64,000 nucleotides of DNA from Nitrospirales bacterium (lineage in GTDB: Bacteria > Nitrospirota > Nitrospiria > Nitrospirales > UBA8639). Positions 14,834 to 48,848 of the stretch are shown piece by piece; within the stretch, counting starts at the first letter, position 1, and every line of letters begins with the position of its first letter. The position numbers were made by a program, and so were the translations under genes. The notes under the pieces were generated by a model. It had not been told where the DNA came from, searched no databases, and saw only the letters and a list, made by a program, of their open reading frames with translations. The DNA is taken from NCBI GenBank assembly GCA_963555755.3, contig OY820905.2:3424001-3488000 (forward strand), in the 5' to 3' direction.

Positions 14834-15084
14834 GCAGGGTTTCGCCCCTGCAGACGACCTCCTTTTGTTTCGGCAAAAGGAGGCATAACCATTCTTGCCT
14901 GTGCGCGTCCCTCCAGAGAATGGGCTAAAAACGTTCCCATTCTCTTCCAGGTCCCTCCGCTTCCGCCCCGAATAAGATGGCTCAGGAACTCGCGGAGCCT
15001 GTCCTGAGCCTTGTCGAAGGACTCAAACAGCCTTCGCCGAGAAGTCGATTCGGGACTCCAGTTCCGCCGCGCCCAACGCAGGGG
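14834..15084 (+). repeat. Structured repeat, family A, copy 1
   Basis: GCAGGGTTTCGCCCCTGC and CTTTTG-TTTCGG-CAAAAG hairpins. Homologous to copies at 17191, 18465, 45758 and 48526. Confidence 0.85.
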
Positions 15085-15156
15085 AAAGGCAAAGACCTGA
15101 ATGACAATCGAAAAAAATGGTAAGGTGAGTTTACGGATTTGATAGAGGGATGCGTT

Positions 15157-15188
15157 AAAATGTAACAGAATACGACATTCTGTTATAT
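15157..15188. other. Palindromic site ATGTAACAGAAT-N5-ATTCTGTTATAT (candidate recombination or operator site)
   Basis: 11/12 inverted arms. The left part recurs at 17066-17082 (16/17 identical) and a related palindrome lies at 48392-48419. Confidence 0.55.
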
Positions 15189-15275
15189 GGTACTCCCTAT
15201 AAAGGTACTTTGGCAGTGAGACGTCACATGTCGGTGGCCTAGTGATACAATTTGTGAGGCGTCGTACGATTAACC

Positions 15276-15299
15276 GTCCGCTTTCGACCCAAAGCCGAC
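15276..15299. repeat. 24-bp imperfect palindrome GTCCGCTTTCGACCCAAAGCCGAC
   Basis: 19/24 identical to 16959-16982, with degenerate relatives at 16409-16468. Confidence 0.65.
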
Positions 15300-15363
15300 A
15301 TTTTTTTTAACACGCTCAATATGAATGTACTATCTATCGTCCTAAACTGATAATGGAGTAGCT

Positions 15364-16386
15364 ATGCAACTGCTAAGTCCTACACCCGAAAGTGCAAGTC
15401 ATGTACTGCGAGCCGTCGCCACCGTCGCCCGCGCTGCAGATGGCGGGCTAAACCCAACTCACCGTGCAGTCATGGACACAGCCCAGCGGATGCTCTTGAA
15501 GACCGAACTCGATGTCGACGAGCTTGATGAGATCTCACCCGATTCGCTGGCGTCCCGGCTCACGGAACAACCAGAGATCAGCCGACAGGTCATCCGGGCC
15601 ATGGTCTTGATGAGCATGGCCGTCGGTCCACCAAATCCCGCCCAGGTCGAGCTAGTGCTACGATTCGCAGCTGCGCTGGGAGTCGATGAACCGGCAACTC
15701 GCACCATCCAGCATTTGACCGAGCACGATATGCTGTTGTTTCGCTTTGACATATTCCGCCGGGGAAACGCCGGTGACTATGTGCGCGAGCAGTATCGCTC
15801 CCACGGCGGTTTTGTCGGTGTTGCCAAGGCAATTCTCGGTGCTGCGGGCATCCTGCCCGATCCGAAGCTTGCGGCACAGTTCCGAGCCCTTAAGCAGCTG
15901 CCAACCGATACCCTTGGTCATACCTTATATCGTTTCTATACGGCAAAAGGATTCAGCTTTCCCGGTTCCGGTGAGAAACTGAGCTTGCCGCTCGGGGCAT
16001 TATTCCACGATCTCGGCCATATCCTCGGCGGCTACGACACCTCTGTGGAAGGCGAGATGCTTGTGGCTTCCTTCCAGGCAGGCTACCGGCGTACCGAGGA
16101 TGCGTTCTTCACCATATTGTTCGTCGTCGTTGTGCACAGCGCGGGGATAAACCTGACTCCCTTCGAGCTAACGGTACGACTCGGCAGACTCGGAGAGATG
16201 TCTGAGGATATGTTCATCGCAAATCAACGAGGCAGCTCCATGAACACTGATCTTGGCGACGCATGGGATTTCTTGCCGTGGCTGGAGCGGCCGTTGGAGG
16301 AGGCTCGCGAGGAGCTAGGAGTGCCACCGCTATCAAAGCCCCCGAAGTTAGGTGCGCTGGACCTAGGTCTTAACGATTCTACGTAG
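15364..16386 (+). CDS. Hypothetical protein, TerB-like N-terminus plus Coq4-like C-terminal domain
   Basis: L..LP.DTLG and HDLGHILGGYDTSVEGE resemble the Coq4 HDxxH..GY...GE motif. GC-rich codon style differs from flanks. Confidence 0.7.
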   Translation: MQLLSPTPESASHVLRAVATVARAADGGLNPTHRAVMDTAQRMLLKTELDVDELDEISPDSLASRLTEQPEISRQVIRAMVLMSMAVGPPNPAQVELVLRFAAALGVDEPATRTIQHLTEHDMLLFRFDIFRRGNAGDYVREQYRSHGGFVGVAKAILGAAGILPDPKLAAQFRALKQLPTDTLGHTLYRFYTAKGFSFPGSGEKLSLPLGALFHDLGHILGGYDTSVEGEMLVASFQAGYRRTEDAFFTILFVVVVHSAGINLTPFELTVRLGRLGEMSEDMFIANQRGSSMNTDLGDAWDFLPWLERPLEEAREELGVPPLSKPPKLGALDLGLNDST

Positions 16387-16408
16387 CTACGTAAAGGCGT
16401 ATCGGATC

Positions 16409-16468
16409 AACTGCTTTTGGCCGTTTTGAGCCGTTTCGGCCAAGGGTAGAAGGCGACCCATATCCGAC
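16409..16468. repeat. Two degenerate copies of the 24-bp palindrome family between island genes
   Basis: CTGCTTTTGGCCG... and ...CGACCCATATCCGAC. Confidence 0.5.
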
Positions 16469-16489
16469 TTTTTCAGCTAAGTTGCAGAA

Positions 16490-16942
16490 ATGAAAATTAA
16501 ACCGCTTGCTGACCATAAGGAGGTATTACCCATCCTGACCGATTGGTACCTATCGGAGTGGGAACCGTACTATGGAGTTGATGGACCTGGAGATGCACAG
16601 GCAGATCTGGAGTCTCGCTGCAATTATGAAGAGATTCCCATTGGTCTGGTAGCTATCAAGGGAGACCAGGTGTGCGGAACGGTTGCGCTGGATCTCGATG
16701 CAGCCACTAATCTGACACCCTCAATAGTTGGCCTGCTGGTGGGCCGCGCTTATCGAAGAAGAGGCATCGCGGCCGCACTCTTAAAATCGGCTGAAGATCG
16801 CGCGCGCAGGCTTGGTTACAGTCGCGTCTACATGAGCACAACTATCCTGGGCGAGCTACTTAATCGTATGGGATGGGGTAAGTTGGGGGAAGTCGAGTTC
16901 ATGAATAATGAGCGGGGTTGGATTTATGTACGCGACTTTTGA
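16490..16942 (+). CDS. GNAT family N-acetyltransferase
   Basis: LLV...YRRRGIA..LL acetyl-CoA motif A, GW near the C-terminus. Confidence 0.88.
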   Translation: MKIKPLADHKEVLPILTDWYLSEWEPYYGVDGPGDAQADLESRCNYEEIPIGLVAIKGDQVCGTVALDLDAATNLTPSIVGLLVGRAYRRRGIAAALLKSAEDRARRLGYSRVYMSTTILGELLNRMGWGKLGEVEFMNNERGWIYVRDF

Positions 16943-16958
16943 CAATTGACCCTCTCGA

Positions 16959-16982
16959 GTCCGCTTTTGGCCGAAACCGGAC
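16959..16982. repeat. 24-bp imperfect palindrome GTCCGCTTTTGGCCGAAACCGGAC
   Basis: Homologous to 15276-15299, just downstream of the GNAT stop. Confidence 0.65.
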
Positions 16983-17190
16983 ACAATTTGGAGTAATCAA
17001 GATGCATGTCTAACCCGTAAATACAACAGACCCCAAAAAGTAGACGTTGATCTCCAACTTTAGCGAAAATGTAACCGAATACCTGAAAAGGGGACGCTTC
17101 CCTTTCCCGGCCGCATGAATTTGTGGCAAGAAGGAGAATTGAGTTTGTAGGGCCCTCAGTTTTAAAAGTTGGTTTGTTTCTTGAGTGGTT

Positions 17191-17385
17191 CCCCGCCTTT
17201 GTGCGCGGCGGAGCTGGAGTACCGAATCGACTTCTCGGCGAAGGCTGTTTGAGCGGAGCGAGTTCCTGAGCCATCTTGATTCGGTACGGAGGCGGAGGAA
17301 CCCAGCAGGGCCGCGCACAGGTGGAAATGGTTTTGGTCACTTTTGCCGAAACAAAAGTGACTCGTCTGCAGGGGCGAAACCCTGC
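17191..17385 (-). repeat. Structured repeat, family A, copy 2 (inverted)
   Basis: Reverse complement aligns with 14834-15084. Confidence 0.85.
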
Positions 17386-17452
17386 TAGAAATAATTCTTG
17401 CAAATAACCTTGTGCGTCGATTGTAGCCCCAGCTGCTGCTAGATTGCAGCAC

Positions 17453-17599
17453 CTATCGTTGCCTCACCAAAATTCGGATCGGTGTTCCTTCAAATCCAAA
17501 CATGTCGAGTAAACGGTTTTCGAGAAAACGCAGGTAGGTGGCGAGAACCTCAATGGTTTTCCCGACAAACAACGCTGCAATGGATTCGACGGTTGGGGG
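17453..17599 (-). pseudogene. Diverged duplicate of the der 3' end
   Basis: Translates as [48 protein letters not shown], versus Der [44 protein letters not shown]. Confidence 0.9.
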
Positions 17600-17601
17600 A
17601 A

Positions 17602-17630
17602 TTGACAGATGTTACTTCTAGTGGTAGATT
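17602..17630 (+). promoter_or_regulatory. sigma70-like promoter of vapBC
   Basis: TTGACA-N17-TAGATT upstream of vapB. Confidence 0.6.
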
Positions 17631-17654
17631 AAAGAAATATAGGATGAATCATCC

Positions 17655-17909
17655 ATGGCAATCAATATCAAAAATCCAAAAGCTGAGCTTTTAGCCAATC
17701 AACTGGCTAAAAAAACTGGAGAGACGATCACGGATGCGGTCATTCATGCGTTGGAAGATCGTTTGGAACGCGTTGAAGGGTGTCGAACTCGTCCTGATCT
17801 CGTCACAGAGATTCTGAACATTGCTACTCGCTGTAGCGCCTTGCCGGTTCTGGATTCCCGGACACCCGAGGAGATATTGGGCTATTCACACACCGGGTCA
17901 TTTTCCTAA
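17655..17909 (+). CDS. vapB: Type II antitoxin VapB (Rv0623-like)
   Basis: MAINIKNPKAELLA..LA..TGETIT.AV..AL..RL, C-terminal EEILGY, upstream of a PIN toxin. Confidence 0.9.
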   Translation: MAINIKNPKAELLANQLAKKTGETITDAVIHALEDRLERVEGCRTRPDLVTEILNIATRCSALPVLDSRTPEEILGYSHTGSFS

Positions 17910-17915
17910 ATTCAG

Positions 17916-18308
17916 ATGGTCATTGATTCTTCCGCATTGGTTGCCATATTGGTCAATGAACCCGAAGCCCGGGTGATGGCTGAGGCGGTGGCCGCAGATC
18001 CCAAGCGTTTGGTGAGTACCGTTTCGGTATTAGAAACAGGGATCGTGATTGAGGCGCGATATGGGCCCGCAGGGGGAAGGGAACTGGATTTACTGCTTCA
18101 TCGTTGTCGAATGGACGTGGTGCCGCTGACCTCCGAGCAAGTAGAGTTAGCTCGGGAGGCCTATCGGCAATTCGGAAAGGGAAGCCATGCAGCAGGGTTA
18201 AACTTAGGAGATTGTGCGGCCTACGCGTTAGCCCGGAGTACCGGTGAACCACTGCTCTTTAAAGGGAACGACTTTAGTCAGACCGACCTTCGTATCGTTT
18301 CCTATTAA
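17916..18308 (+). CDS. vapC: Type II toxin VapC (PIN domain)
   Basis: MVIDSSALVAIL..EPE, LNLGDC..YALA, PLLFKGNDFSQTD. Confidence 0.94.
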   Translation: MVIDSSALVAILVNEPEARVMAEAVAADPKRLVSTVSVLETGIVIEARYGPAGGRELDLLLHRCRMDVVPLTSEQVELAREAYRQFGKGSHAAGLNLGDCAAYALARSTGEPLLFKGNDFSQTDLRIVSY

Positions 18309-18464
18309 TACATTCTTTGCCGTCCTTCGTCCAATCAATAAACAAAAAGAAAACCAAACCTGGGTTCCCGATTACAAACGTCGGGAACGACAGCAGGGGT
18401 AATTGGTGGGCCATGCCTTTCCCATGTGTTTCTCGTGTTTGGAAAATCAGGTGTTCCTTTCGTC

Positions 18465-18582
18465 TCCCGCCTTTGTGCGCAGCGGAGGCGGAGGGACCCA
18501 GTAGGGCTGCGCACGGGCGAGAATGGTTTTGGGTCCTTTTGCCGAAACAAAAGGACCTCGTCACGCAGGGGCGAAACCCTGC
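18465..18582 (-). repeat. Structured repeat, family A, copy 3 (internally deleted)
   Basis: Retains the GGTCCTTTTGCCGAAACAAAAGGACC and GGGGCGAAACCCTGC hairpins. Confidence 0.8.
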
Positions 18583-18651
18583 TAAAAATCATTCTTGCAT
18601 ATAATCTAGTGCGTCAGTTTGACCCCAAACTGGCGCTTCTAGATTGCCAAC

Positions 18652-20016
18652 CTATCTCTGCCTCACCAAAATTCGAATCGGTGTTCCTTCGAATCCAAAC
18701 GTGTCTCGCAATCGATTTTCCAGAAAACGAAGATAGAAGGTGGGAACCTCGACGGATTTCCCAACGAACAAGGCAAAGGTTGGGGGTTTGGTGGCAACTT
18801 GAGTCATGAATACGGACTTCAAGGGATTTCGTTTTTTGGTGGGGAGTGGATTGTCGTCGAGGGCTTTTTGTAGAAATTGATTGAGTTGGCCTGTTGGCAC
18901 TCGATGGGAGAAGGCTTCCATCACACTCTCAATCTTGGGAAACAGGTGCTCAATAGACGATCCCTGAAGTGCGGAACCGAAAATCGTGGGTACAAATTTA
19001 AAAAAGGGAAAGCGGCGATGCAGTTCTTGGTCGTATCGGGTTTGGGCCGTGGGATCATCTTTTCGCAGATCCCACTTATTGACAAATAGAATGCAGCCTC
19101 GGCCTTGTTTTAATATCAACCCCGCGATCTTGGTATCTTGCTCGGTGGCCCCCTCGATGCCGTCCAATAGAAGAATGGCAATGTCAGATCGTCCTAGGGC
19201 CTTGAGCGTTCTGGCCAGGCTATAGCCTTCGATTCCTCGTTCTATCTTGCCTCGACGCCGGATGCCTGCCGTATCCGTAAACACAAACGGGTGTCCTTGG
19301 TACTCGATGAGAGTATCCACGGGGTCGCGTGTGGTGCCGGGAATCTCGCTCACCACAACCCGGTTCTCTCCAAACAAGGTATTGACTAGCGTGGATTTTC
19401 CGACATTTGGTCGGCCTACGACGGCTACGCGCGGATATGGGGTGCGTTCCTGTTCTTCGTCAAATGGCAGCAAGGGTAAAAACGCTTCGAGTAAATCATC
19501 CACTCCAATGCCGTGCTCAGCGGTAATCGGAAATAACTTGTCTTTCCCCAACTGATAAAAGTCCGCGAGTAAGGTTTCGGCCTTGGGGGTGTCGATTTTA
19601 TTGATCGCATAAAACGTGGGTTTGTTCACATCTCGGAGGAGATGCGCGATCTCTTTGTCAAGTGGGTTGAGGCCTGCCCGTCCATCCATCAGCACCACAA
19701 GAATGTCGGCTTCTGCAATCGCCGCTTGGGATTGGATGCGAACGAGGTTCGCCATCCCTTCGGAAGAGGAGAGGTCCAGGCCTCCGGTGTCTACCAGTTG
19801 GAACCGACGTCCTTGGTATGTGCACTCGGCGGTGATTCGATCACGGGTGACACCTGGCATGTCATCGACGATCGCACTGCGTGTTCCGAGGACTCGGTTG
19901 AAGAAGGTTGATTTGCCAACATTCGGCCTTCCGATAATGGCGACAATGGGCACTTCCCCCTTGGAAAGTCCAGGCAGTGTGTTTCGTTGAACAGGTTTTG
20001 AACGTTTCTGACGCAT
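18652..20016 (-). CDS. der: Ribosome biogenesis GTPase Der
   Basis: Two GRPNVGKST G-domains, DTGG/DTAG, NKID/NKWD, C-terminal GFEGTPIRI. Confidence 0.97.
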   Translation of the reverse strand: MRQKRSKPVQRNTLPGLSKGEVPIVAIIGRPNVGKSTFFNRVLGTRSAIVDDMPGVTRDRITAECTYQGRRFQLVDTGGLDLSSSEGMANLVRIQSQAAIAEADILVVLMDGRAGLNPLDKEIAHLLRDVNKPTFYAINKIDTPKAETLLADFYQLGKDKLFPITAEHGIGVDDLLEAFLPLLPFDEEQERTPYPRVAVVGRPNVGKSTLVNTLFGENRVVVSEIPGTTRDPVDTLIEYQGHPFVFTDTAGIRRRGKIERGIEGYSLARTLKALGRSDIAILLLDGIEGATEQDTKIAGLILKQGRGCILFVNKWDLRKDDPTAQTRYDQELHRRFPFFKFVPTIFGSALQGSSIEHLFPKIESVMEAFSHRVPTGQLNQFLQKALDDNPLPTKKRNPLKSVFMTQVATKPPTFALFVGKSVEVPTFYLRFLENRLRDTFGFEGTPIRILVRQR

Positions 20017-20056
20017 CCGTGAAAATGGGTATCTAGAGGGTGTGGTGCTGTTAAAA

Positions 20057-20236
20057 ATTATCCTAAAAACGTCAGTTCGTTCATTCCTGCTTTGACCCTT
20101 CGATGGGTTGAGGACTCAGGTGGAACAGGGTGGCGTAACCGTCACCTGCATGGTGAGGGTCCGTTCGCCCTGAGCGCCACGGCTCCCGCGCCAGTCGAAG
20201 AGTCCCGAGATTGCCAACTCCCATTTTTAGGATAAT
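20057..20236. repeat. MITE/REP-like element with 13-bp TIRs
   Basis: ATTATCCTAAAAA ... TTTTTAGGATAAT enclosing REP-like CCCTTCGA..CTCAGG and CCCTGAGC..GTCGAAG motifs. Confidence 0.6.
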
Positions 20237-20395
20237 GAAGTTGAGAAACTAACATGGTGGACTCGATCAGAACAAGAAAGGTCCCATGACTTCTTTGTCA
20301 GCGATCTGTTGCCGAATAGAGAAAGGCCGAATGGGTCTACATTGACGGATCGAAATCAGCAATGACAGGAGAGGAAATCGAAGGGGAACGGGAAC

Positions 20396-20923
20396 TTAGA
20401 CGTGCAGGTGTTTGAGCGCGGCAGCACAGAGAATAATGAAGACGCCTATTCCTAGCGCAATACGTTGAAAGGGAATGGGTTCAGCGGTGTGCTCTTCCTT
20501 TTCTTCGGCCGTCTCTTCCCCGGTTGGTTCGATTCCAAAAATCACGGTGTAGAGATACAGCGTCATGATTCCAAGCACTAATGCCAACTTAATGAAAAAG
20601 ATGGTCAGATATTTGGGGTTGTGGGTAATCCCTTCACCGGTCTGCAGTATCATGAGCTCACTGACGTAATGAAGATTGATTCCTCCGGTGAAGAGGATCA
20701 CGAGAAGGAGGAGGCCCACGATCTTGCGGTATTGCTTGTAGAACGTGTCACAAATGGGTTTGATAAATTCTTTAGGGACGGAGGTTTTGAGCCCTGGCGT
20801 GACGGCCATAACCAGAAAGGCCAATCCACCAATCCACACAATGGCCGACAACAGGTGCACCCAGTGATTCAGAATGGGGAGAACCTTATTGAGATCGAGG
20901 AAAACTTCTTGGAGGACGCTCAT
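20396..20923 (-). CDS. CopD-like/DUF4149-like membrane protein
   Basis: HWVHLLSAIVWIGGLAFL motif, 4 predicted TM helices, start overlaps the radical SAM stop. Confidence 0.7.
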   Translation of the reverse strand: MSVLQEVFLDLNKVLPILNHWVHLLSAIVWIGGLAFLVMAVTPGLKTSVPKEFIKPICDTFYKQYRKIVGLLLLVILFTGGINLHYVSELMILQTGEGITHNPKYLTIFFIKLALVLGIMTLYLYTVIFGIEPTGEETAEEKEEHTAEPIPFQRIALGIGVFIILCAAALKHLHV

Positions 20924-22296: not shown

Positions 22297-22310
22297 GAGT
22301 AGCTGGCTCC

Positions 22311-24601: not shown

Positions 24602-25274
24602 TCAGGGCAGGGCCATGCGGATGGCTAAATGGGGCTTGCCCCAGAGCAGTCTACACGCCTGCGCGATATTGGTGTAGCCTTTCAGGCGTAAGAGACTGAT
24701 GGCATAGCGTCTCAGACAGGTCATGACCATTGGGCCATTGAGACTTCGTATCTGACTCCTGTCTTCATCAAAGGTGACGTCCAACACATAATGCTGCTTA
24801 TTCTCCACACTCCAATGCTTTCGGTTTTGCGAGAGGATGGTCTTCGGCCCCGCCTTGTCTTTGGACTGACTCGTGACACCGCAGACCGCTTCGACGGTCG
24901 TGAGGCCCTGCTTGAGATGCGTCACTTCCCTCTCAATGCAGAAGACTTGCTGGACATGAGGAAAGTTGACATAGGCATTCAGGGAGTCATCGCACCAGAT
25001 CCTGCGGGTCGTGATCTGCCCATGGCCTTTCTCGGTGGTGGCATAATCGCACCGGCGTGCTCGCAACGCTAAGGCCTCAATGTCGTGCTTCAAGGTGGGC
25101 TGGTTTCCCTTGACGGTGAAGACGAAGTCGGCGCCGCGTTCGTGCACCAGGTACTCGGCAATCTCTTTCTGGGTGAGGAGCGCATCCGCCGTGATCACCT
25201 TCCCTGCGATCTCGAGCGCATCTAACAGGGGCCGCACGCAGGGGATCTCATTGGTCTTGGAGTGAACTTTTTTT
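24602..25274 (-). CDS. IS orfB: ISAs1 DDE transposase C-terminal part, joined by -1 frameshift
   Basis: The -1 frame after AAAAAAAG gives KVHSKTNEIP..., ITADALLTQ, VKGNQ, EKGHG, RKHWSVEN, LDVTFDED. Confidence 0.85.
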
Positions 25275-26349
25275 GGGTGAGGTGGCGCCCGGCTTGATGG
25301 GTGACGGCGCTGAGGACGTGGGTCTGTTCGCTTGGGACCTTCGACGTCCCCCGCATGGTCTTCCCATCAATGGCAATGCCCTGATCCTCCCCGCCGAAGG
25401 TGTCCAGCCACCGGCCGAGCAGGGTATCGACTTCACAGGGGTCGACGGCCGTGATAAAGCGGTAAAGAGTGCTGCGGCTCGGGACGAGGTAGCGCCCCCC
25501 TCGCTGAGTACAGCCTAGCCGCTTGCGCATCGGCTGCGATAACTGCTGGGCCCAGTCCGAGATCGCTTCATAGCCGCGCGCGCCGCACAAGGTGGCACAG
25601 AACATGATCGCCGTGAGGGCGCGTCGGGTGTGCCGTTGCCCTTGCAAATGGCGGGGATCGGTCAGCTGCACCACATACGTAAAGAGGGAGTCCGTCTGTT
25701 TTGTATTCAATCTCATCTGAGGCGCTTCTCCTTTCTGATAGGGCTGATCAAGCATCGGGCGTGCAAGGATCTCTCGGGCTTGGGGATGCAGCCGCACGAC
25801 TAGGATGCGCTTCGGTCTCTCATGCTGAACATAACACGTGTTCGACTTGCGAAACCCTCGTGTCAGACCGAGCTCGTGCCACCCGGCGGCCCGATAGCAG
25901 GTCCCGGTGAAGCGGGCAGGATCGACGAAGGTCTCTAAGAGGAGCAAGGGGTAGCCGTGGTACAGTTGCCAATCGGACGAGATCCGTTTCGCGCAGAGCG
26001 ACAGGACTTTCGAGGCGAGGTTCTTTTGCGAACAGCCCGGCAGCATGAGAAACCGGGTGTTGTTGGCCAGTAAATGGAGTCGTTGCCATTGAAAACAGGG
26101 GGGCCAGCCGATCCAGTGGTCTCGCGGTCTCGATTTGAGGGCCGCCGCCGCAAACACCAGCAAGGCCAGCCAGCGATCCTGCACACAGGCGAGATATTGT
26201 ATCGATTGGCCAATCAGCGGGGCATGACCGAGGTAGTGGTGTCTGTCGAGAAGGGTCTTGAAGGCGTCCTTTTCGTCTCGGACAATTGGGCGAACCACGA
26301 CTTGCCTCAGATCAATGTCCGGCTGTCCGCTTGGCGATTCGTCTGGCAT
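25222..26349 (-). CDS. IS orfA: DUF4338-like domain fused to ISAs1 transposase N-terminal region
   Basis: HHYLG...RDHWIGW...NNTRFL...ETFVDPARFTGTCYRAAGW, then DPR...RH and IAIDGKTMRG. Confidence 0.85.
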   Translation of the reverse strand: MPDESPSGQPDIDLRQVVVRPIVRDEKDAFKTLLDRHHYLGHAPLIGQSIQYLACVQDRWLALLVFAAAALKSRPRDHWIGWPPCFQWQRLHLLANNTRFLMLPGCSQKNLASKVLSLCAKRISSDWQLYHGYPLLLLETFVDPARFTGTCYRAAGWHELGLTRGFRKSNTCYVQHERPKRILVVRLHPQAREILARPMLDQPYQKGEAPQMRLNTKQTDSLFTYVVQLTDPRHLQGQRHTRRALTAIMFCATLCGARGYEAISDWAQQLSQPMRKRLGCTQRGGRYLVPSRSTLYRFITAVDPCEVDTLLGRWLDTFGGEDQGIAIDGKTMRGTSKVPSEQTHVLSAVTHQAGRHLTQKKFTPRPMRSPACGPC

Positions 26350-29660: not shown

Positions 29661-30279
29661 AACCTAGAAACCGCAGGTGGATCACAAAAGCCCGCGCAAG
29701 CTCAAGGAGCCTGTCCAAGATTAGACGGATCTACTACGGGTGCGCTGGGTGTGGCCAGATCTTCCGATCCTTTTCGGGGAATGTTGAAAAAGGCCGCCAG
29801 CCGCGTTCTCGGGCTTTTGGTGTGCTCACGTACTCCGTGTACGCTCCGCGCGCCAAAAGCCCTGCGGCCTTGCTGGACAGCCTTTTTCAACCTTCCCCGT
29901 TTTCGTTGAATAGCCCTACTATTCGCCTCAAACGATCGAAACATCTGACTCAAACCAGCACCCTCTCGCAACGATCCCTAATCTCGGACAGGCTCCTAGG
30001 CGCACCTGGCACAATACAAAAATGTCTCATCACCACTAAGGGTTCGCGCAAGAATACCTTCCCCTGTTTGGGTGCTGAGACACCTGTCTGGCAAGGCGCG
30101 AGGACTGCGCATACTCCTCGTATGGAAAGGACGAGCAACGCCGCCAGACGGGATGGATCGACGCCCAAACAGGGGAAGGTATTCTTGCGCGAACCCTTAG
30201 GTGACCACGACTTTTTGTATTTCACCATGCACGCCAATATCTCACACGTCTTTTTTACGACCAACTGCCGTTCTAAGAT
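29661..30279. mobile_element. Nested MITE cluster: family F host containing element G (29706-29996, itself containing B at 29776-29898) and family C (30040-30196)
   Basis: Removing the inserts restores a sequence colinear with the reverse complement of 842-1008. G has AGGAGCCTGTCC(A/G)AGATTAG TIRs. Confidence 0.85.
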
Positions 30280-35186: not shown

Positions 35187-35743
35187 AAGGAGACGTGGCC
35201 TGGTGGCAGAAAGGAGAAAATACGCTGATCGTAGAGAATATCTGATCAATGCCGTCTGAAAACGTCGCAAGGAAATTCGCCAAAAAGTAATACTCCATTT
35301 TGGCGGACGTTGTCAGCGGTGTGATTATGATCGGTGTATAGAAACATTGGAGTGCCATCATCTTGAGTCCTCAGAGAAAGATTTTGGAATTTCTAGCAAA
35401 GGGTATACTCGAAGCTGGAACCAAATCCTGAAGGAACTTGAAAAATGTGTGCTCCTGTGTGCCAATTGCCATCGAGAGGTTCACGCCGGATTGCAGCTTC
35501 CACAGGAAACTGTGGTTGAAAAATCGGGTGAATTCAGGGAAGCCTTCCCCGGGTTCGTGACGAACTCGGAATGGGAACCCTGAGCGAAGCCTGCCGAAGG
35601 GTCTCGTGTAGGCAGGAACGTGCAGAGACTAGAGGCTGAGGAACCCAACCCAATAAGGCCTCACAAGCGCCCGACACCCTCCCCTGATTGTTCAGGCGGG
35701 TGATGAGATAGTCCGAGCCCGGTAGAAATGCTGGGGGTACTCG
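35187..35743 (+). ncRNA. Group I self-splicing intron (557 nt, IA-like) at tRNA position 35/36
   Basis: P1 GGCTGT/GTGGCC with U.G at the 5' splice site, P3 TCGGGTG/CGCCCGA, P4 TCAGGG/CCCTGA, R GCAGAGACTAG, S GAGATAGTCC, GAAA-capped P9, terminal G. Confidence 0.93.
35203..35583 (+). pseudogene. Intron-encoded HNH-type endonuclease with in-frame TGA at codon 19
   Basis: GTG 10 nt after AAGGAG. MAERRKYADRREYLINAV*KRRKEIR...GGRCQRC..CIETLECHH...KCVLLCANCHREVH is a zinc-binding HNH signature. Confidence 0.85.
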
Positions 35744-39877: not shown

Positions 39878-39900
39878 ACCTCAATATTGACAGGAAATTA

Positions 39901-41724: not shown

Positions 41725-41753
41725 ATGTTCTGATACGTTCCAAGGAGAATTAG

Positions 41754-41969
41754 GTGGCTCAAGATTTAATGTGGGAAGACGTAGAAGATATTGGGATTCG
41801 GTTACAGGAAGAACATCCCGATCTGGATCCCCTCACGGTTCGATTTACAGATATGCATAGTTGGATTGTTGCCTGGCCGGAATTTAAGGATGACCCAAAG
41901 AGCTCTAACGAAAAGAAACTCGAGGCGATTCAAATGGCCTGGCACGAGGAGTACCAGGACGCTCAATAA
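41754..41969 (+). CDS. iscX: Fe-S assembly protein IscX
   Basis: W.D...I...L...HPD.DP..VRFTDMH.W...EK.LEAI..AW. Confidence 0.93.
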   Translation: MAQDLMWEDVEDIGIRLQEEHPDLDPLTVRFTDMHSWIVAWPEFKDDPKSSNEKKLEAIQMAWHEEYQDAQ

Positions 41970-42034
41970 TCCCCCGTGAAGCGTAATGCGTGAAGCGTAA
42001 GGGGAGAGGAGAGGGGTTCCTCTTTTACGTCTCC

Positions 42035-44386
42035 CTATTGTTCAAGCTGATCGAATTCGTAGAAATCTAAGGGGTCGGCTGTGCTCCGGGCGGGACGTTG
42101 TGGAACCGTTCCTTCGGCAAAGACTTCAGTTGTGGAGGTTGACGTCGGCTCGCTCACCAGGGTGCCGGTTTTTTGATCAATCTCCACGAATTGAATGCCT
42201 TCAGGGATGCTAAATGTTTGAACGGGTACGGACTTCAGCGCCTCAGCCACAAATTGAATCCAAATGGGCAAGGCGGCATGGGCTCCTGATTCTCTTTTTC
42301 CTAACCGTTCGACATCATCGAATCCTACCCACACGCCGACGGCCAAGTTCGGTGCATATCCGACAAACCAAGCATCTTGGAAATTATTCGTCGTGCCCGT
42401 CTTGCCCGCGAGAGGTCTTCCAATAGAGCGAGCCCGTCTTCCCGTCCCGCTTTGAATCACATCCATCATCATGTGCGTAATCAGATAGGCGGTTTCCTGA
42501 GAGACCACCTGGCGGGGTTCAAAGAGATGTTGCTCAAGAACTTTATCTTCTTGGTCTTTCGCAATTGAAATGGTATAGGGGCGTAAGGCTAAACCCTGAT
42601 TGGCAAAGACGCCAAAGGCGGAGGTGATTTCTACCAATGTGAGGCCCGATGACCCCAAGGCTAGGGAAAGGTCTTGGCTGAGAGGACTTCGGATTCCCAG
42701 TTTCCGGGAAAACTCCGTGACGCGACGCACCCCAATTTGTTCGAGGAGTCGTACCGTTGCCGCATTTCGAGAGTGACGCAAGGCCTCTCGTAGCGTGATC
42801 GAACCAAAAAACCGCTTTTCATAGTTTTCGGGTTTCCAAGTTTTTCCAGGATCCTCCTGCTCATATACGACTGGGGCATCCAAAACTAGCGTGGCCGGGG
42901 TCATTCCCCCATCGAGCGCCGTGGCATAGATGATCGGCTTAAATGCGGATCCTGGCTGGCGAAGCGAAAGGAGCGCTCGATTAAATTGACTTCGTTCAAA
43001 ATCATATCCACCGACCATGGCCCGAATGGCACCGGTTCGTGGGTCGATGGCGATAATCGCGCCTTCAACCCTGGGCGTTTGCTCAAGGAGGAACCGGATT
43101 TTCCCCTTCCTCCTCGATTTGAGGGACACTTCGATGACATCTCCAGGAAGTAACAATTGCTTAGCCGAGGTGATAGGGAAATTTTTGGCTTCCATGACGG
43201 GCGCATCTTTTGGAAGGCGGCGTTTAGCCCAGAGCATATCTTTGAGCGAGATGGTTCCGATGAGACCATTGACGACAACAGTTGCCTCTTCTTTTGAAAC
43301 CTCCGTCACGATACCTTCCAGAATGTCACCGTGTTCGGGAAGGTCGGGTGGTGGATCTTCGGGCAGTATGCCGAGGGGATCTTCGTGCCGAAGCGGGCCG
43401 TGCCACCCCTGCCGTTTATCTAATTGCCTCAGGCCGGTCTGGATTGCTCGTTCAGCTATACGCTGCAATTCAATATTGAGTGTGGTGAAGACTTGGAGCC
43501 CTCCTTTGTACACCATGGATTCCCCATAGGCCTTGCCCAAGTGTTGGCGGACGTTTTCCAAGAAATAGGGAGCCACGCGCTCAATAGATCGTCGTTGAAA
43601 GTTCAGCGTGGTGTCAATGGCCTCCTGTGCGAGGTCGGTCGAGATAAAGTTGGCTTGAGCCATGCGTCCGAGGACATGTTCTTGGCGTTTTTTCGCAAGG
43701 TCAAAATTTTTATAGGGAGAATAGGTGCTAGGGGCTTTGGGTAGGCCAGCCAGGAATGCGGATTCTGGCAAGCTCAGTTCGGCTAGGCCTTTTCCGTAAT
43801 ACGTGAGGGCAGCGCTTCCGATACCATACGCGCCATGTCCAAAGTAGATTTGATTCAAATACATTTCCAGGATTTGATCTTTGGTCAACACCATTTCCAT
43901 TTTAAGGGCAAGAATCAACTCTCGAATTTTTCGTCGAAAGGTGCGTTCTGGAGAAAGAAATAGCGTCCGCGCGAGTTGCTGGGTGATGGTGCTGGCCCCT
44001 TCGAATTTGCCCCCTCGCCTGAGGTTAGTCCAAGCAGCTCGAAAAATCCCCCAAATGTCTAGCCCAGGATGTTCAAAGAATCGGGTATCTTCAACGGCGA
44101 TGAGGGCGTTAATTAAATGCTGAGGCACTTCGGTGAGTCGAGCCAGAATTCTGCGTTCGACATAAAATTGTCCCATGACCTGACCGTTGTCAGCGTGCAC
44201 CTTCGTAATGAGGCTGGGCTGATATTCATGGAGAACTGCGAGTGAGGGCAGGCCTGTAGAAGCATACCAGGCCAGAGCGATAGCCCCACCCATGCCCAGC
44301 CCTGTTCCAACAAGGACGATGATCAGAAGAAATCGTGGCCAACGTCGGCGTGTGGTTTTCTGGGAAGGGCCTTTGGGTGATGCCAT
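42035..44386 (-). CDS. mrcA: Class A penicillin-binding protein 1A
   Basis: EDTRFFEH, GASTITQQL, RQPGSAFKP, SRN, KTGTT. Confidence 0.93.
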   Translation of the reverse strand: MASPKGPSQKTTRRRWPRFLLIIVLVGTGLGMGGAIALAWYASTGLPSLAVLHEYQPSLITKVHADNGQVMGQFYVERRILARLTEVPQHLINALIAVEDTRFFEHPGLDIWGIFRAAWTNLRRGGKFEGASTITQQLARTLFLSPERTFRRKIRELILALKMEMVLTKDQILEMYLNQIYFGHGAYGIGSAALTYYGKGLAELSLPESAFLAGLPKAPSTYSPYKNFDLAKKRQEHVLGRMAQANFISTDLAQEAIDTTLNFQRRSIERVAPYFLENVRQHLGKAYGESMVYKGGLQVFTTLNIELQRIAERAIQTGLRQLDKRQGWHGPLRHEDPLGILPEDPPPDLPEHGDILEGIVTEVSKEEATVVVNGLIGTISLKDMLWAKRRLPKDAPVMEAKNFPITSAKQLLLPGDVIEVSLKSRRKGKIRFLLEQTPRVEGAIIAIDPRTGAIRAMVGGYDFERSQFNRALLSLRQPGSAFKPIIYATALDGGMTPATLVLDAPVVYEQEDPGKTWKPENYEKRFFGSITLREALRHSRNAATVRLLEQIGVRRVTEFSRKLGIRSPLSQDLSLALGSSGLTLVEITSAFGVFANQGLALRPYTISIAKDQEDKVLEQHLFEPRQVVSQETAYLITHMMMDVIQSGTGRRARSIGRPLAGKTGTTNNFQDAWFVGYAPNLAVGVWVGFDDVERLGKRESGAHAALPIWIQFVAEALKSVPVQTFSIPEGIQFVEIDQKTGTLVSEPTSTSTTEVFAEGTVPQRPARSTADPLDFYEFDQLEQ

Positions 44387-44673
44387 AGGATCTGGGGCTG
44401 AAGAAGAATGGAGGACCGGTTGCCCGTGCGAGGGCTTTCTTTTAGTGAATACCTCTTATTAAAGAATACGATAACCCCGGATCGCCCAAAAGACAAGAAA
44501 GGAATTTGAGGAATTATTTTCTTCAGGTTTAACCGGCTTGTTACCCAAAAGGGACAGCCTTTTCATGATCATGGCTCTTATGCTACCTTAACAAATATTC
44601 CGAGCACATGCTCTATGAAAAAACCCTTGCGAGCCGCGAGATTAGATTACTTTCACATTAAGGAGGCCGGTTT

Positions 44674-45144
44674 ATGTCTGATGTTGCTCAAGAAATCAAG
44701 GTTGGTGATGCTGCTCCCGATTTTACCTTAAAAGATCAGGATCAAAATGATGTCACACTGAGTTCGTTTAAGGGCCAAAAAAATGTCGTGTTAGCATTTT
44801 ATCCCTTGGATTGGAGTCCTGTGTGTGAAGGGGAAAATAAATGCATCACCGATGATTTTCCCAGCTTTTCCGATGCGAATTCAGAAATTTTCGGTATTAG
44901 CGCGGACAGCTTTTTTTCTCACAAAGCCTGGGCCGACTCGCTCGACCTCAAACACAAGTTGTTGGCTGATATGCATCGCACCGTGTGTAAATCCTATGGC
45001 CTGTATTTTGATGCCTTGAATTGTGCCAAACGCGCCACGGTTATTGTGGATAAACAGGGCAGGGTCGCCTATGTCAAAGTCCAAGAAATCAAAGTCCCAC
45101 GGGATGACAAGGACATTTTGGAAGCACTGAAAAAATTGAACTGA
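44674..45144 (+). CDS. Peroxiredoxin (AhpE/BCP-like)
   Basis: [27 protein letters not shown]. Confidence 0.9.
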
Positions 45145-45181
45145 CAATATTGTAGGCATTCGAAGGGGATTCCTGAACTAA

Positions 45182-45338
45182 GGGCTCGCGCAAGAATAAC
45201 TTCCCATTTTGGGGTGACGAGACACCTGTCTGGCAAGGCGCGAGGACTGCGCATACTCTTGGTATGTAAGGGACGAGCAACGCCGCCAGACAGGATGGAT
45301 CGACGCTCAAAGATGGGAAGTTATTCTTGCGTGAGCCC
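45182..45338. mobile_element. MITE family C inserted in the loop of a terminator-like hairpin
   Basis: TAA/TAA flanks, surrounded by GAAGGGGATTCCTG and CAGGAATCCCCTTC. Confidence 0.88.
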
Positions 45339-45388
45339 TAACAGGAATCCCCTTCCTTTGTGAAAGGCTACCCAAGGAAAAAGTCTTT

Positions 45389-45724
45389 ATGGCTGGAACG
45401 GTGATTAGTGTTTCCGACGAGAATTATGAAGAATTTACGCAGGCCCCTGCAGCCATGGTGGCCTATGGTATTGGGTCTTGTCAGCCATGTGCCGAGTATG
45501 ATCCGATTTTAGAATCAGTTGCAGCAAAGTATGCTCATATTCGAATTGGCAAGGCTAAAATGCACGTTCCTGGCCGTTGCCGGGGCATTAAAAAACAGCA
45601 CACCTTTGAAACCTACCCCACCACACACTTCTTTTCAAACGGACAATTGTTATTGACGCGAGAAGGGAAGATTGAAGAGTCGGAACTTGCGACTCTTTTT
45701 CAAGAGCATTTTCCCAATCCTTAA
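45389..45724 (+). CDS. Thioredoxin-like protein
   Basis: CQPC active site, YPT.HFF..G. Confidence 0.82.
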   Translation: MAGTVISVSDENYEEFTQAPAAMVAYGIGSCQPCAEYDPILESVAAKYAHIRIGKAKMHVPGRCRGIKKQHTFETYPTTHFFSNGQLLLTREGKIEESELATLFQEHFPNP

Positions 45725-45757
45725 TCTTTTCCCATTCCCTTGTTGAAAATAATTTTT

Positions 45758-45950
45758 GTGGGGTTTCGTCCCCACGCGACGAGTCACTTTTGTTTCGGCA
45801 AAAGTGACCAAAACCATTTTTGCCTGTGCGCGGAACCACGGGGGACTGGTCCGCCGCCCCGAATCAGGATGGCTCGGAAACTCGCTCCGCTCAAACAGTC
45901 CTCGCCGAAGGGGCCGATTCGGGGCAGCGGCCCAGCCGCGCCCAACGCAG
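45758..45950 (+). repeat. Structured repeat, family A, copy 4
   Basis: GTGGGGTTTCGTCCCCAC and GTCACTTTTGTTTCGGCAAAAGTGAC hairpins. Confidence 0.85.
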
Positions 45951-46124
45951 TGAAAGGGAAATCCTTGAACGACAAATATCAAGAAATGGTCGGGAGCTTT
46001 GCCGATCTGTATAAGAGGATGTGATAACTGGCCAGACGGGGAGGAAGTCGTTGAGTATTAAAGGAATTCACAAACCCTCGACGGGAAATCCCGAAGCGTG
46101 TTATACGGATAGGAACTCAAAGAT

Positions 46125-46161
46125 TCGCATCTTATGCGGATCCATCTAATCATTGTTAGGC
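46125..46161 (+). other. attI-like integron site with core GTTAGGC (46155-46161)
   Basis: GTTRRRY core 24 bp before cassette 1, complementary to the GCCTAAC of attC1. No attC hairpin upstream. Confidence 0.6.
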
Positions 46162-46184
46162 GGTAAGAATATCGAGAACGAAAT

Positions 46185-46691
46185 ATGAGAAAAGTGATTA
46201 CTACTCTATTGTCATTATTTGGTTTAGCTGGTAACGCGGCGGCTTTAGATAATGCTGGAATCTATTTATCTTCCAAGTTTGACTTAACTGTCGCCCAGCT
46301 TTCCAAAATTGCGGTTGGTGCTAAAGTGGAAATGGTCGAAAATAATGAAGGGAATTCATTTCAGGTAAGTTGGCCAGATGTTTCCGTAACTATTAACACA
46401 AAGAACGTGTGGTCTGATCGAACCACCCAGATTAGCGGAATGACAAACTGGGCTAAATCTTTGGGGGGTAATAATTCATCGAGCTTTTTAAACAAAATTG
46501 CTTCCGCCACTGATATATTGGGCTGTGTAATTCAGCCCGGATATGACAAGGAACAAAAAGTGGCTCGCTTGGTTAACGAAATTGCCAAAAGATACGAAGG
46601 TTTTATTTTTACATATCAAAGTTTTTACAATGAGCGGGGGCATAAAATTGTTGGGCAAGCGAATGACCCTCAGAAAGTCGGAGGCGCCTAA
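46185..46691 (+). CDS. Gene cassette 1: hypothetical secreted protein
   Basis: Signal peptide, AT-rich, stop codon inside the attC inverse core. Confidence 0.75.
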   Translation: MRKVITTLLSLFGLAGNAAALDNAGIYLSSKFDLTVAQLSKIAVGAKVEMVENNEGNSFQVSWPDVSVTINTKNVWSDRTTQISGMTNWAKSLGGNNSSSFLNKIASATDILGCVIQPGYDKEQKVARLVNEIAKRYEGFIFTYQSFYNERGHKIVGQANDPQKVGGA

Positions 46692-46771
46692 CAATGCGCT
46701 GCTAGGGACTTGGCAAAGCTTTGCTTGAAAAACAGCAAACCTTTACCATGCCCAAGAGCTTACCGTTGGGC
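46686..46771 (+). other. attC site 1 (86 bp)
   Basis: GCCTAAC ... GTTGGGC. Arms GCT(G)CTAGGG(A)CTTGGCAAAG versus CTTTACCATGCCCAAGAGC, with extrahelical bases. Confidence 0.85.
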
Positions 46772-46791
46772 GGCGTACGGAGGCGGCGTGC

Positions 46792-47592
46792 ATGGACTAC
46801 CCGTTTGAGCACCCTGATTTTCACGGCCGGAACCTTGCTCTTCGCACGTCGGGGTTCTTCGCGTCCGCCCGGTTGGTAGTTGATGGCGCCGAAGTCACTG
46901 CGACCAAAGGGAAGTTCGCCCTACACGACAATCAGGGACGCCCTCGGGAGCTCAAGCTCAAGGCGGGTTTTCTTGATCCGGTTCCGAAGGTAGTTCTCGA
47001 CGACACCACAATCGCTCTAGTCAGCCCTCTCAAATGGTACGAGTACGCATGGATGGCACTACCCATCGTGCTCGTGTTTAGCGGTGGTGCGCTGGGTGCT
47101 CTATTCGGAATTACTGCCGCGTATTCAAGCACTCGTATATTCAGAAGCGATCGTGGCGCCGCGGCCAAGTACCTCCTCTCCGGACTCGCTTCCATTGGCG
47201 CAGTTGCAGGGTTTCTGGCGAGTGCGACCGCCCTGCAACTTCTGATCTCCTGGAACACGGACCCCTCATCCGAGAAGGCCCTCGACGAAGTTGCTCGAGC
47301 CTCCAACAAGGAGCTGCCGATGATGATCGACGACCAGACCGAGTTAGTGAAGCTCGAGGGTCTCGAGGGTGTGCTCGTCTACCACTATCGCCTCACGACG
47401 ATCGCGCCGGGCCAAATTTCAGGCGAGGCGCTGGTACAGCGGCTTCGCCCGACAATCTCTGCGAACGCCTGTGCCCACGACGAGAGCAGGGAGCGATTCC
47501 TCGATAATGGCATTGCGCTTCGCTACGCCTACAGCGACGCGGAGGGCGGGACCATTGGTGCGTTCGACGTCTCTGCCAACGACTGCCTCTAA
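46792..47592 (+). CDS. Gene cassette 2: hypothetical membrane protein
   Basis: GGAGG RBS, TM segments, C-terminal N..LP.MID..T domain, GC-rich unlike adjacent cassettes. Confidence 0.78.
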   Translation: MDYPFEHPDFHGRNLALRTSGFFASARLVVDGAEVTATKGKFALHDNQGRPRELKLKAGFLDPVPKVVLDDTTIALVSPLKWYEYAWMALPIVLVFSGGALGALFGITAAYSSTRIFRSDRGAAAKYLLSGLASIGAVAGFLASATALQLLISWNTDPSSEKALDEVARASNKELPMMIDDQTELVKLEGLEGVLVYHYRLTTIAPGQISGEALVQRLRPTISANACAHDESRERFLDNGIALRYAYSDAEGGTIGAFDVSANDCL

Positions 47593-47665
47593 CAACGGTT
47601 CTTTGATGGCGTCGCGTTGGCCAGGCAGCATCCGCGCGGAGGTTCGCGCAGGCCGAGGCCCAGCC

Positions 47666-47795
47666 GCCCAACAAGGGCTTGCAGCGGACCGGCTCACGCT
47701 TTGAGCGAGGCAGACCGTGTTAGAATGCGAGATCTTCTAGCGCTTCAGCCTCGGTGGCAGAGCGCCGCCGGCCGCTGAAGCCCGATCCGCTAGGC
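47666..47795 (+). other. attC site 2 (130 bp)
   Basis: GCCCAAC (complement of the cassette-start GTTGGGC) ... GCTAGGC. GGGCTT(G)CAGCGG(A)CCGGC pairs with GCCGGCCGCTGAAGCCC. Confidence 0.88.
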
Positions 47796-47811
47796 ATGTA
47801 AAAGGAAAGAA

Positions 47812-48276
47812 ATGCAGATAATCAAAAAAATACTCATTGGACTTGGTGTTGTGTTCGCATTATTTATTGGGTTCGTAATATTCATGTTTGGAGAGTCTGG
47901 TGATTTCAAAGAAAATAATGAACAGCTAGTCAGAGAGTATACTCAAAAGTTTAGTCAAAACTGGAGCATTAGTAGTGTTAGTGATCTCAGTACGAATGAT
48001 CTATTGTCCCAAATCACCACTCCAAATGGACAACATTCGTTAAGGCAATTTCAATCATTCGGAAAACTAGTGGAAATCGAAGATATTGAGATAAGTAACT
48101 ACAACACATCCACGGGAGCTGGAACTACCGGTGTGTTCAAATTTAAGGCAAAGTTTGAAAATTTAAATGCTTTGGTTACGGTGACGGTTCGTGAAAAGGA
48201 TAGTGTAGCAAAGGTTCATGGTTTCCACATTGATCCGCTGAGCGAGGTATCTCCACCGAAGGAATTTAATATCTAA
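47812..48276 (+). CDS. Gene cassette 3: hypothetical membrane-anchored protein
   Basis: AAGGA RBS, N-terminal TM, AT-rich, stop codon in the attC inverse core. Confidence 0.78.
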   Translation: MQIIKKILIGLGVVFALFIGFVIFMFGESGDFKENNEQLVREYTQKFSQNWSISSVSDLSTNDLLSQITTPNGQHSLRQFQSFGKLVEIEDIEISNYNTSTGAGTTGVFKFKAKFENLNALVTVTVREKDSVAKVHGFHIDPLSEVSPPKEFNI

Positions 48277-48386
48277 TCAGAGGTTGCAGCCGACCCAAAA
48301 CCCGCCACTTCGTTTTTCGCGTTGCTGTGCTCCATTTTCCCAAAAAAAAGCGTTGTATTTTGCGGGGCTGAACCTAAGCGTTAGAG
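48271..48386 (+). other. attC site 3 (116 bp, degenerate)
   Basis: ATCTAAT ... GTTAGAG. AGGTT(G)CAGCC pairs with GGCTGAACCT. Confidence 0.7.
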
Positions 48387-48391
48387 CAAAA

Positions 48392-48419
48392 ATGTAACGG
48401 AATGCCAATACGGTTACAT
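48392..48419. other. Palindromic site ATGTAACGGAAT-N4-ATACGGTTACAT
   Basis: 10/12 inverted arms, homologous to 15160-15188. Confidence 0.55.
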
Positions 48420-48525
48420 GGAACCTGCCATTTCCTCGTGAAAACCCCTTAAACATTGGCTATTGAGTTTTAATTGGGTTTGCCTTTTACAACTCTAGTT
48501 TACTTGATTCGTTTCTTAAGTATTT

Positions 48526-48848
48526 CCTCCGCCTTCGGGCGCGGCGGAGCCGCAGCCCCGAATCGACCGCTTTGGCGAAGGCTGTTTGAGCGCAGCGAGT
48601 TCCTGAGCCATCTTATTCGGGGCGGAGGCGGAGGGACCCGGAAGAGAATGATCAAAACGTTCGTCAGCGGCGTTCTCGGCCCTTTGCCGTGCTCACGTAC
48701 TTAACGGTCACGCTGCGCGCGCCAAAGCGCCTGCGGCCTTGCTGACGAACGTTTTGATCATTCTCTGTAGGGCCGCGCACGGGTGGAAATGGTTTTGGGC
48801 ACTTTTGCCGAAACAAAAGTGTCTCGTCGCGCGGGGGCGAAACCCTGC
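48526..48848 (-). repeat. Structured repeat, family A, copy 5 (inverted), with nested B-core element at 48643-48766
   Basis: The insert has 26-bp perfect arms AGAGAATGATCAAAACGTTCGTCAGC. Confidence 0.85.

Follow-up and report, generated by a model that had tools for sequence, protein, structure and literature searches.

Inward-facing pairs of a structured repeat as likely exchangeable gene-capture pads in marine nitrite-oxidising bacteria

[quoted passage not shown] Here, we are concerned with a stretch of 64,000 nucleotides from a Nitrospirales bacterium, the window (C1:3424001-3488000 of the genome G000, which is 4.62 Mb long and 99% complete), where two islands of accessory genes, island 1 (14834-17385) and island 2 (45758-48848, both in window positions), are each enclosed by two inverted copies of a repeat, which we refer to as family A.

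Island 2 resembles CALINs, and their single-site counterparts (SALINs), in being a short attC array with no neighbouring intI; unlike them, it keeps an attI site, and attI arrays recur at many loci behind the same repeat, while the published explanation through insertion at attG sites would bring no attI. With integron mobilization units (IMUs) and TIME-COMP elements (PMC3575428, PMC13367494) it shares two inverted, small, non-coding copies around a defective integron whose enzyme acts in trans; family A, however, has neither Tn3-type terminal inverted repeats nor a target duplication, its copies are about 80% alike instead of identical, more than 100 of them occur per chromosome, and the pads are fixed while the interiors change. 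The extragenic, long-lived, structured inverted doublets with a variable middle of the REPIN-RAYT system (bioRxiv 10.1101/2021.07.10.451892) and of TIRtrons (PMC3733652) are also similar, but a REP sequence is a palindrome of about 14 bp and its doublet measures about 100 bp, whereas the family A unit has about 190 nt and several covarying stems, its middle reaches 5 kb and contains genes, and no Y1 transposase gene is flanked by the repeat. Lastly, the BoxC and TM triplex repeats (PMC4666352) are dispersed, have triplex potential, form tandem inverted pairs, mark variable loci and undergo deletions that keep a hairpin; they differ in sequence and size, the predicted family A triplex being A/T-rich, joined to a long stem and provided with a conserved apical core. 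Island 2, with no fewer than two attC sites and no neighbouring intI (as judged by hand), is a CALIN by definition; the likeness to IMU/TIME-COMP and REPIN elements is one of layout, and the tests that define those systems failed here.

The literature searched, with most subscription papers and all supplements outside the search, contains no description of family A, of repeat-anchored attI pads or of the 24-bp site that is introduced below. The arrangement offers an origin for small integrase-free cassette arrays, namely attI platforms multiplied chromosome-wide by a repeat, in a situation where the published explanations (integrase loss, insertion at genomic sites) leave such attI arrays uncovered; it also provides sequence-defined turnover sites for accessory genes (toxin-antitoxin, candidate defence and restriction genes) in globally relevant nitrifiers.

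Pairs and interiors across loci and genomes

Both islands are examples of a genus-wide pattern in marine nitrite-oxidising bacteria, where pairs of family A copies next to core genes face inward, enclose interiors that vary from species to species (integrase-free integron attachment sites with cassettes among them) and likely serve as exchangeable gene-capture pads; the records that carry the repeat are, according to their titles, Nitrospirales metagenome-assembled genomes almost throughout. The family A unit is composed of two modules, a T module of 77 nt (a terminal hairpin and a second hairpin) and an M module of 103 nt; in G000, 112 T and 96 M matches to hidden Markov models (HMMs) have been merged into 129 elements, with a mean identity of 79% among full copies and with invariant blocks. 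Neighbouring copies cluster (62 neighbours closer than 6 kb, compared with 19.9 expected and a maximum of 32 in 2000 simulations), and the genome-wide map agrees with the inward-facing architecture that a sequence-only reading of the window had proposed for the two islands: inverted neighbours face inward in 24 cases and outward in 3 (p 5e-5), and the pairs hold variable interiors. The same excess is found in two relatives, G003 (18 inward vs 2 outward, among 57 copies) and G002 (21 vs 2, in 100 of 113 places). Where a gene lies within 150 bp of the hairpin end, its 3' end faces the hairpin in 30 of 34 copies; the inward excess is partly explained by this position of the T module just behind gene 3' ends. 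There is no replichore bias (56 vs 71), and same-direction arrays of copies with small modules between them also occur. Two other genera (G145 and G016) carry single copies and no inverted pairs, which indicates that single family A copies spread alone.

The comparison of orthologous loci in G002, G003, G004 and G006 has revealed that the pair is kept and the interior differs. At locus 1 (between peptidase M20 and engA, the site of island 1), G003 has a pair with attI and a nuclease gene, G002 has an empty doublet and a small gene pair, and G006 (on two contigs) has the window's flanks, both palindromes and both outer 24-bp sites around other cargo. At locus 2 (between thioredoxin and PTPS, the site of island 2), the same attI and palindrome flanks enclose one different cassette in G003, other cargo is present in G002, and nothing in G004, where 45 bp separate the two genes. 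Swapped cargo in G002, G003 and G006 at both loci, together with the empty locus 2 of G004, supports the suggestion that repeat pairs act as landing pads. On a wider scale, 27 G003 loci comprise 16 that are syntenic with G000, 8 synteny breaks and 3 without a flank; family A is present in both genomes at 12 of the 16 syntenic loci, and only 2 share an interior block of at least 300 bp. Toxin-antitoxin pairs are numerous in other interiors, which also contain glyoxalases, TIR and RelA/SpoT genes and a type I restriction system.

The copies themselves exchange sequence and flanks with each other, as is indicated by 27 copy pairs that share the inner but not the outer flank, and by orthologous copies being only slightly more alike than unrelated ones (T module, 0.876 vs 0.852; M module, 0.821 vs 0.775). 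The way in which a pad is emptied can be read from six collapsed pads, whose joint falls within the second hairpin, at a short direct repeat; one of the six is filled in G003. Across genera, G000 and a member of another genus have in common, at unrelated loci (L066:3957-5263 and G000 C1:2369993-2371297), a 1.3-kb block with two tandem family A copies, at 97.6% identity; as the neighbouring genes of the two genera are about 70% alike, the block is either a recent transfer or a binning error in G018.

Structure and cargo of the two islands

The features reported earlier from the window sequence are all present, as judged by sequence, HMM matches and folds: inverted family A copies bracket both islands with the terminal hairpin outermost in all four copies, recombination-like sites separate the cargo genes, and the open reading frames of the islands include no recombinase. 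The features of island 1 and its right flank are as follows (GC, guanine-cytosine fraction; z, folding score):

14836-15080, plus strand: family A copy, left end of island 1; T module 14836-14910, linker hairpin, M module 14954-15080 (HMM match and sequence)
15160-15188, unstranded: 29-bp palindrome with invariant outer 7-mers and a 15-bp middle; fold z -5.7
15276-15299, unstranded: 24-bp palindromic site, marking on the left the edge of the cargo not shared with G006
15364-16386, plus strand: 340-aa cargo gene, GC 0.58; no Pfam, NCBIfam or PADLOC match
16410-16436, unstranded: degenerate site of the 24-bp type, between the two cargo genes
16490-16942, plus strand: GNAT acetyltransferase cargo gene
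16959-16982, unstranded: 24-bp palindromic site, marking on the right the edge of the cargo not shared with G006
17008-17065, plus strand: decayed attC-like site; core intact in G006, no fold here (z +0.3)
17066-17082, plus strand: left half of the palindrome, a direct repeat of 15157-15173 with 16 of 17 bases identical
17195-17383, minus strand: family A copy, right end of island 1 (HMM match)
17655-18308, plus strand: vapBC-type toxin-antitoxin pair, between two same-direction family A copies
18505-18580, minus strand: third family A copy, T module only, just 3' of engA, enclosing the vapBC pair

The left copy starts 78 bp past the stop codon of a 139-aa gene. Homologues of the 340-aa gene are present in 3 of 80 family genomes at 31-35% identity, which does not make them the same cargo, and their fetched flanks contain no family A, attI or 24-bp site. 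The 24-bp sites constitute a separate, widespread site family, and no family A copy is found in 34 viral loci that bear them. Around the vapBC pair, the 3' end of engA is duplicated (17451-17575 vs 18650-18774, 82%), as in Campbell-type integration, and G006 has the same duplicated-engA frame with another pair.

The features of island 2 are the following:

45760-45949, plus strand: family A copy, left end of island 2, 35 bp past the thioredoxin stop codon
46096-46161, plus strand: attI of a reverse-orientation integron, predicted crossover G/TT at 46155/46156
46185-46771, plus strand: cassette 1, 168-aa gene, GC 0.41; attC 46686-46771
46765-47795, plus strand: cassette 2, 266-aa gene, GC 0.59; attC 47666-47795
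47789-48386, plus strand: cassette 3, 154-aa gene, GC 0.37; weakly folding attC 48271-48386
48392-48419, unstranded: palindrome copy of 28 bp, immediately after the last attC core
48532-48846, minus strand: family A copy, right end of island 2; M module 48532-48634, T module 48771-48846

The right copy lies about 105 bp from the PTPS stop codon, and another repeat, some 125 bp long, is nested within its linker. Two of the three attC-like sites fold well and one weakly (z -3.3, -2.8 and -0.7); in contigs of two other studies, cassette 2 is joined to other DNA at 46764, the predicted crossover, and the cargo DNA of island 2 has not been found in 80 family genomes. The attI sequence, which the sequence-only reading did not mention, also occurs 3' of a near-complete intI in G002:C78 and 3' of C-terminal intI remnants in G000, and is therefore assigned to a reverse-orientation integron. 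Sequence evidence makes island 2 a predicted integrase-free mini-integron: a complete integron has intI next to attI, the putative attI is present at 46096-46161, and no tyrosine recombinase is found in or beside the island. The suggestion of an enzyme acting in trans is well founded for this integron layer, where attI and attC are present and the integrase is elsewhere or lost. Since island 1 changes its cargo at the 24-bp palindromes and island 2 uses attC, two capture systems occupy one kind of shell.

The attI site has a strict position relative to family A. G000 has 8 attI copies, and each of the 5 that are not part of the integron region has a same-strand family A copy upstream of it (4 within 330 bp, one at 4.2 kb); in G003, where no intI is found at E<=1e-30, 7 of 7 genome-wide attI matches are located in family A clusters, again downstream of a same-strand copy. 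One M-end type precedes attI in 16 of 18 cases. IntI proteins above the TIGR02249 cut-off number one in G000 and three in G002. No sigma-70 promoter match precedes attI, and an intI-A-attI intermediate has not been seen; a G002 intI with a family A doublet behind it gives no attI match there. The chromosomal integron region of G000 (L088-L089, C1:318986-332846) contains a truncated intI and three further attI copies, two of which sit behind short C-terminal intI remnants, and at L448 (G002:C99) an integron-integrase-like gene (487-aa frame, long N-terminal extension) is followed by an empty family A doublet.

With regard to the palindrome, two full copies had been claimed: the copy at 15160-15188 stands, while the copy at 48392-48419 pairs well only in its outer 7 bp (z -2.8). 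The strict pattern has 9 strand matches (0.006 expected), and 5 of 8 sites lie within 900 bp of a family A copy, 3.7% of the genome being within 700 bp of one. As the shared signature of both islands, however, the palindrome is not supported, given that it occurs in only 6 of 66 family A clusters and also away from family A (in G000, G003, G006 and G007), nor is it supported as a cargo boundary, both island-1 copies staying in place while the cargo changes at the 24-bp sites. It is a passenger that travels with a few lineages of the inner flank. Its fixed positions are limited to the outer 7-mers and two mirrored bases, and the sequence points to a likely protein-binding site, with operator and recombination site indistinguishable; it may sit beside an integrase target, because a GTT core often precedes it. 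Four viral matches have unrelated contexts.

Sites of the Xer dif type have an 11-6-11 layout with conserved inner bases. The identification of the palindrome as dif or pdif was rejected, as 29 bp leave a 7-bp centre, the inner arm bases vary, and the dif candidate near the terminus differs. A dif-like 28-bp site is located at G000 C1:535429 (minus strand), near the GC-skew maximum. At L028:5339-5465 (G000 C1:3971339-3971465), two palindromes stand in tandem, 98 bp apart, and the left flank of island 1 resembles a deletion between their left arms.

Landing pads and competing explanations

Our search for an enzyme that belongs to family A has covered the genes next to its copies. No recurring enzyme was found by Pfam scans in 150 of 306 listed G000 neighbours, nor among 138 neighbours from relatives and G000 or 39 of 104 viral-locus neighbours, and none recurred among 111 metagenome neighbours, which were clustered by BLAST without a profile scan. 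As regards IS200/IS605 elements with TnpB or IscB, the TnpB profile PF07282 had no match in G000, where controls matched; the PF14239 profile matched nowhere and is uninformative; no Y2 HUH transposase (IS91/ISCR) was among the neighbours scanned, the genome as a whole not having been searched for that family. Further candidates were rejected: the recombinase beside the copy at C1:3933103 is the housekeeping XerD; a 792-aa gene that is present inside many copies encodes a transposase of the IS4 type, whose target is the linker, where a 10-bp duplication results; and the Y1/RAYT genes have short ends of their own, 0 of 17 being bracketed by family A. One broken Y1 gene has a single T module upstream.

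We lean cautiously towards the reading that family A copies are anchored downstream of core genes, that their pairs are landing pads, and that interiors are exchanged through recombination between copies. The repeat, with its predicted single-stranded DNA fold, would spread singly and place its hairpin end at a gene 3' end, as the observed placement suggests, perhaps through nicking by an HUH-type enzyme, which is our guess. Neighbouring copies would end up facing inward, often between convergent genes, the arrangement that is seen. An identity of about 80% between copies, with invariant blocks, would then allow inner flanks and whole interiors to be swapped across loci and cells by host recombination or gene conversion; the exchange pattern is apparent in the genomes, and homologous recombination with RecA and DNA uptake would account for it (ComEC is present in 4 of 5 genomes searched). 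An interior with attI and no integrase would be loaded with attC cassettes by IntI in trans, and the other type of interior would be served, at its 24-bp sites, by the enzymes of a separate cassette system, the sites and the swapped cargo being observed in both. Finally, pads would be emptied through deletion between short direct repeats in the two hairpin modules, presumably by slippage. In the nearly precise excision of Tn10, a deletion between short repeats inside the long inverted ends leaves a small palindrome; the analogy concerns this last step only.

Landing pads fit the pattern better than transposons, because neither a target duplication nor a cognate enzyme has been found. The transposon-like alternative, in which an inward pair would be mobilised as one unit together with its interior, as a large non-autonomous composite of the REPIN or IMU kind, is in our opinion rather unlikely, although it accounts for several findings: the attI unit 3' of gyrB in G002, at a site free of family A in three relatives; the 7 short empty doublets of G002, the shortest doublets being about 430-520 bp long, and the 18 pairs among 57 G003 copies; and the polarity of 5 of 5 inverted doublets from metagenome loci of other bacteria, which is that of the window pairs, two of the doublets looking related. 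The sequence-only reading had also suggested non-autonomous units, and the gyrB unit agrees with it; the missing enzyme and target duplication do not. No target duplication is apparent at 19 pairs (4.4 bp, compared with 4.3 bp in controls), though it may have been erased at insertions of some age; a division of left and right copies into two types is not reliable (22 of 36 mixed, 17.8 expected, p 0.11, not significant); pads persist while their interiors change, the copies in other genera are single throughout, and neither the Y1/RAYT genes nor the scanned neighbours offer an enzyme.

We regard as improbable that each copy is a one-ended element that behaves like ISCR or ISEcp1, where transposition from the hairpin end reads into the inner flank and carries attI, the palindrome or toxin-antitoxin modules to the 3' end of another gene. 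Such an element would be expected to leave inner flanks that move together with the copies and outer flanks specific to each locus, arrays of copies in one direction with small modules in between, the 97.6% block at unrelated loci and the attI site behind one M-end type, but recombination between copies yields the same pattern; moreover, both inner flanks of the island-2 unit co-occur at several loci, for which two ends are required, the 97.6% block has its mapped end where another repeat is situated, and no intI-A-attI intermediate was seen. Least probable, and by our estimate very much so, is the independent accumulation of repeats, attI fragments and cassettes in neutral intergenic hotspots with the pair being inert: the genome is indeed full of nested repeats and insertion sequences (ISs), attI occurs alone in other genera, and triplex repeats of E. 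coli mark unstable loci without a mechanism being shown (PMC4666352), yet in both G000 and G003 attI has a strict polarity relative to family A, different loci share the same two inner flanks, and copies at fixed loci turn over fast in sequence, all of which speaks against it.

Several observations weigh against the landing-pad reading. No more than 13 of 21 inward clusters sit where two genes converge, and independent landing would give fewer pairs than there are, which suggests that something favours pairing; short empty doublets with a common spacer at two G002 loci fit a pair that moves as a unit, as does the attI-palindrome unit 3' of gyrB in G002, where G000, G003 and G004 have no family A and the spacers are too diverged for the junction to be read. 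The only IntI of G000, 1.5 Mb from island 2 around the circle, has no counterpart to the first ~28 profile positions and, being start-truncated, may be inactive. In other genera, solo attI matches mostly have no family A within 1.5 kb, so attI also disperses without it. Contigs of 7 runs contain no clean excision or inversion joint, those joints that are present involving other repeat copies, and the kin genomes are not independent of each other. Synteny breaks, found in 10 of 29 gaps with family A and 1 of 55 without (in G002, 4 of 7 and 1 of 18), are concentrated at the copies and speak for these as exchange zones, but the test is inflated, as gaps with family A are larger and hold other mobile repeats.

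The family A fold, its wider relatives and other mobile elements

In an alignment of 28 chosen copies, two-sided changes occur at 16 of 47 predicted pairs. Of 46 copies, 44 fold lower as the M-to-T strand under RNA parameters and 39 under DNA parameters. Inspection of the alignment reveals no complementarity between the two ends of a copy, and hence Tn3-type terminal inverted repeats are absent. Among the 44 copies in which the core loop could be scored, 34 have GNA there. Folded single-stranded DNA typically contains GNA triloops and tandem G-A pairs, for which reason we provisionally read the modelled family A fold as a single-stranded DNA structure.

Viral loci (22) and metagenome loci of varied composition (at least 121) also contain the 20-base core. 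A variable stem of at least 5 bp closes it in 92 of 136 distinct cases, compared with 2% when partners are swapped, the GNA in this set being imposed by the search pattern. A 3' hairpin follows a pyrimidine linker in 43 of the 136 cases, its loop pairs with upstream sequence over at least 5 bp in 22 of 43 (22% in controls), and in 13 of the 15 cases that are informative (30% in controls), which were picked by pattern and are in part related, the linker is a mirror image of the purine arm, as expected of a third strand running parallel to it; in family A itself, the corresponding loop pairing is short. The models point to a core that family A has in common with a pan-bacterial repeat with covarying stems and a predicted triple helix. 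Rfam has no family at the gathering threshold for family A or its relatives, Flavo-1 and HEARO included; Flavo-1 failed as its identity, the single Flavo-1 match being a different element. A plasmid collection gave only 41-bp matches, and the T-module pattern occurs in 0 viral contigs. The repeat core, which is found in many bacterial groups with strong covariation and has no Rfam family or known enzyme, is a target in itself.

The observation made in the window is real, partly in the form proposed, with possibly a new class of elements underneath. A broader idea, which we hold to be conceivable and would not expect to prevail, is that mobile, structured single-stranded DNA (a GNA-capped core on a covarying stem, with a pseudoknotted triple helix) would constitute an undescribed class, pan-bacterial and with its own enzyme, of which family A would be the local branch, and that in this genus inverted pairs would have replaced intI as the chassis of a distributed integron, with integrase-free attI pads chromosome-wide that are exchanged as units.

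Other mobile elements are found next to or within family A. The IS4-type element (with a 792-aa DruA-like plus DDE transposase) has repeatedly inserted into the T-M linker at the G000 loci L001, L006, L016, L017, L018 and L024. At G000 C1:824594, 1014759 and 3131997, T modules stop after the second hairpin and are followed by a group II intron-like 5' end. Other repeats, similar to miniature inverted-repeat transposable elements, are located at window positions 5063-5227, 30036-30200, 45178-45341, 55970-56135 and 48640-48768, some of them nested in family A copies. Elsewhere in the window, positions 35430-35735 match a group I intron of Rfam (69.7 bits), and positions 24602-26349 encode a second pair of DruA-like and DDE transposase genes, with several copies in the genome.

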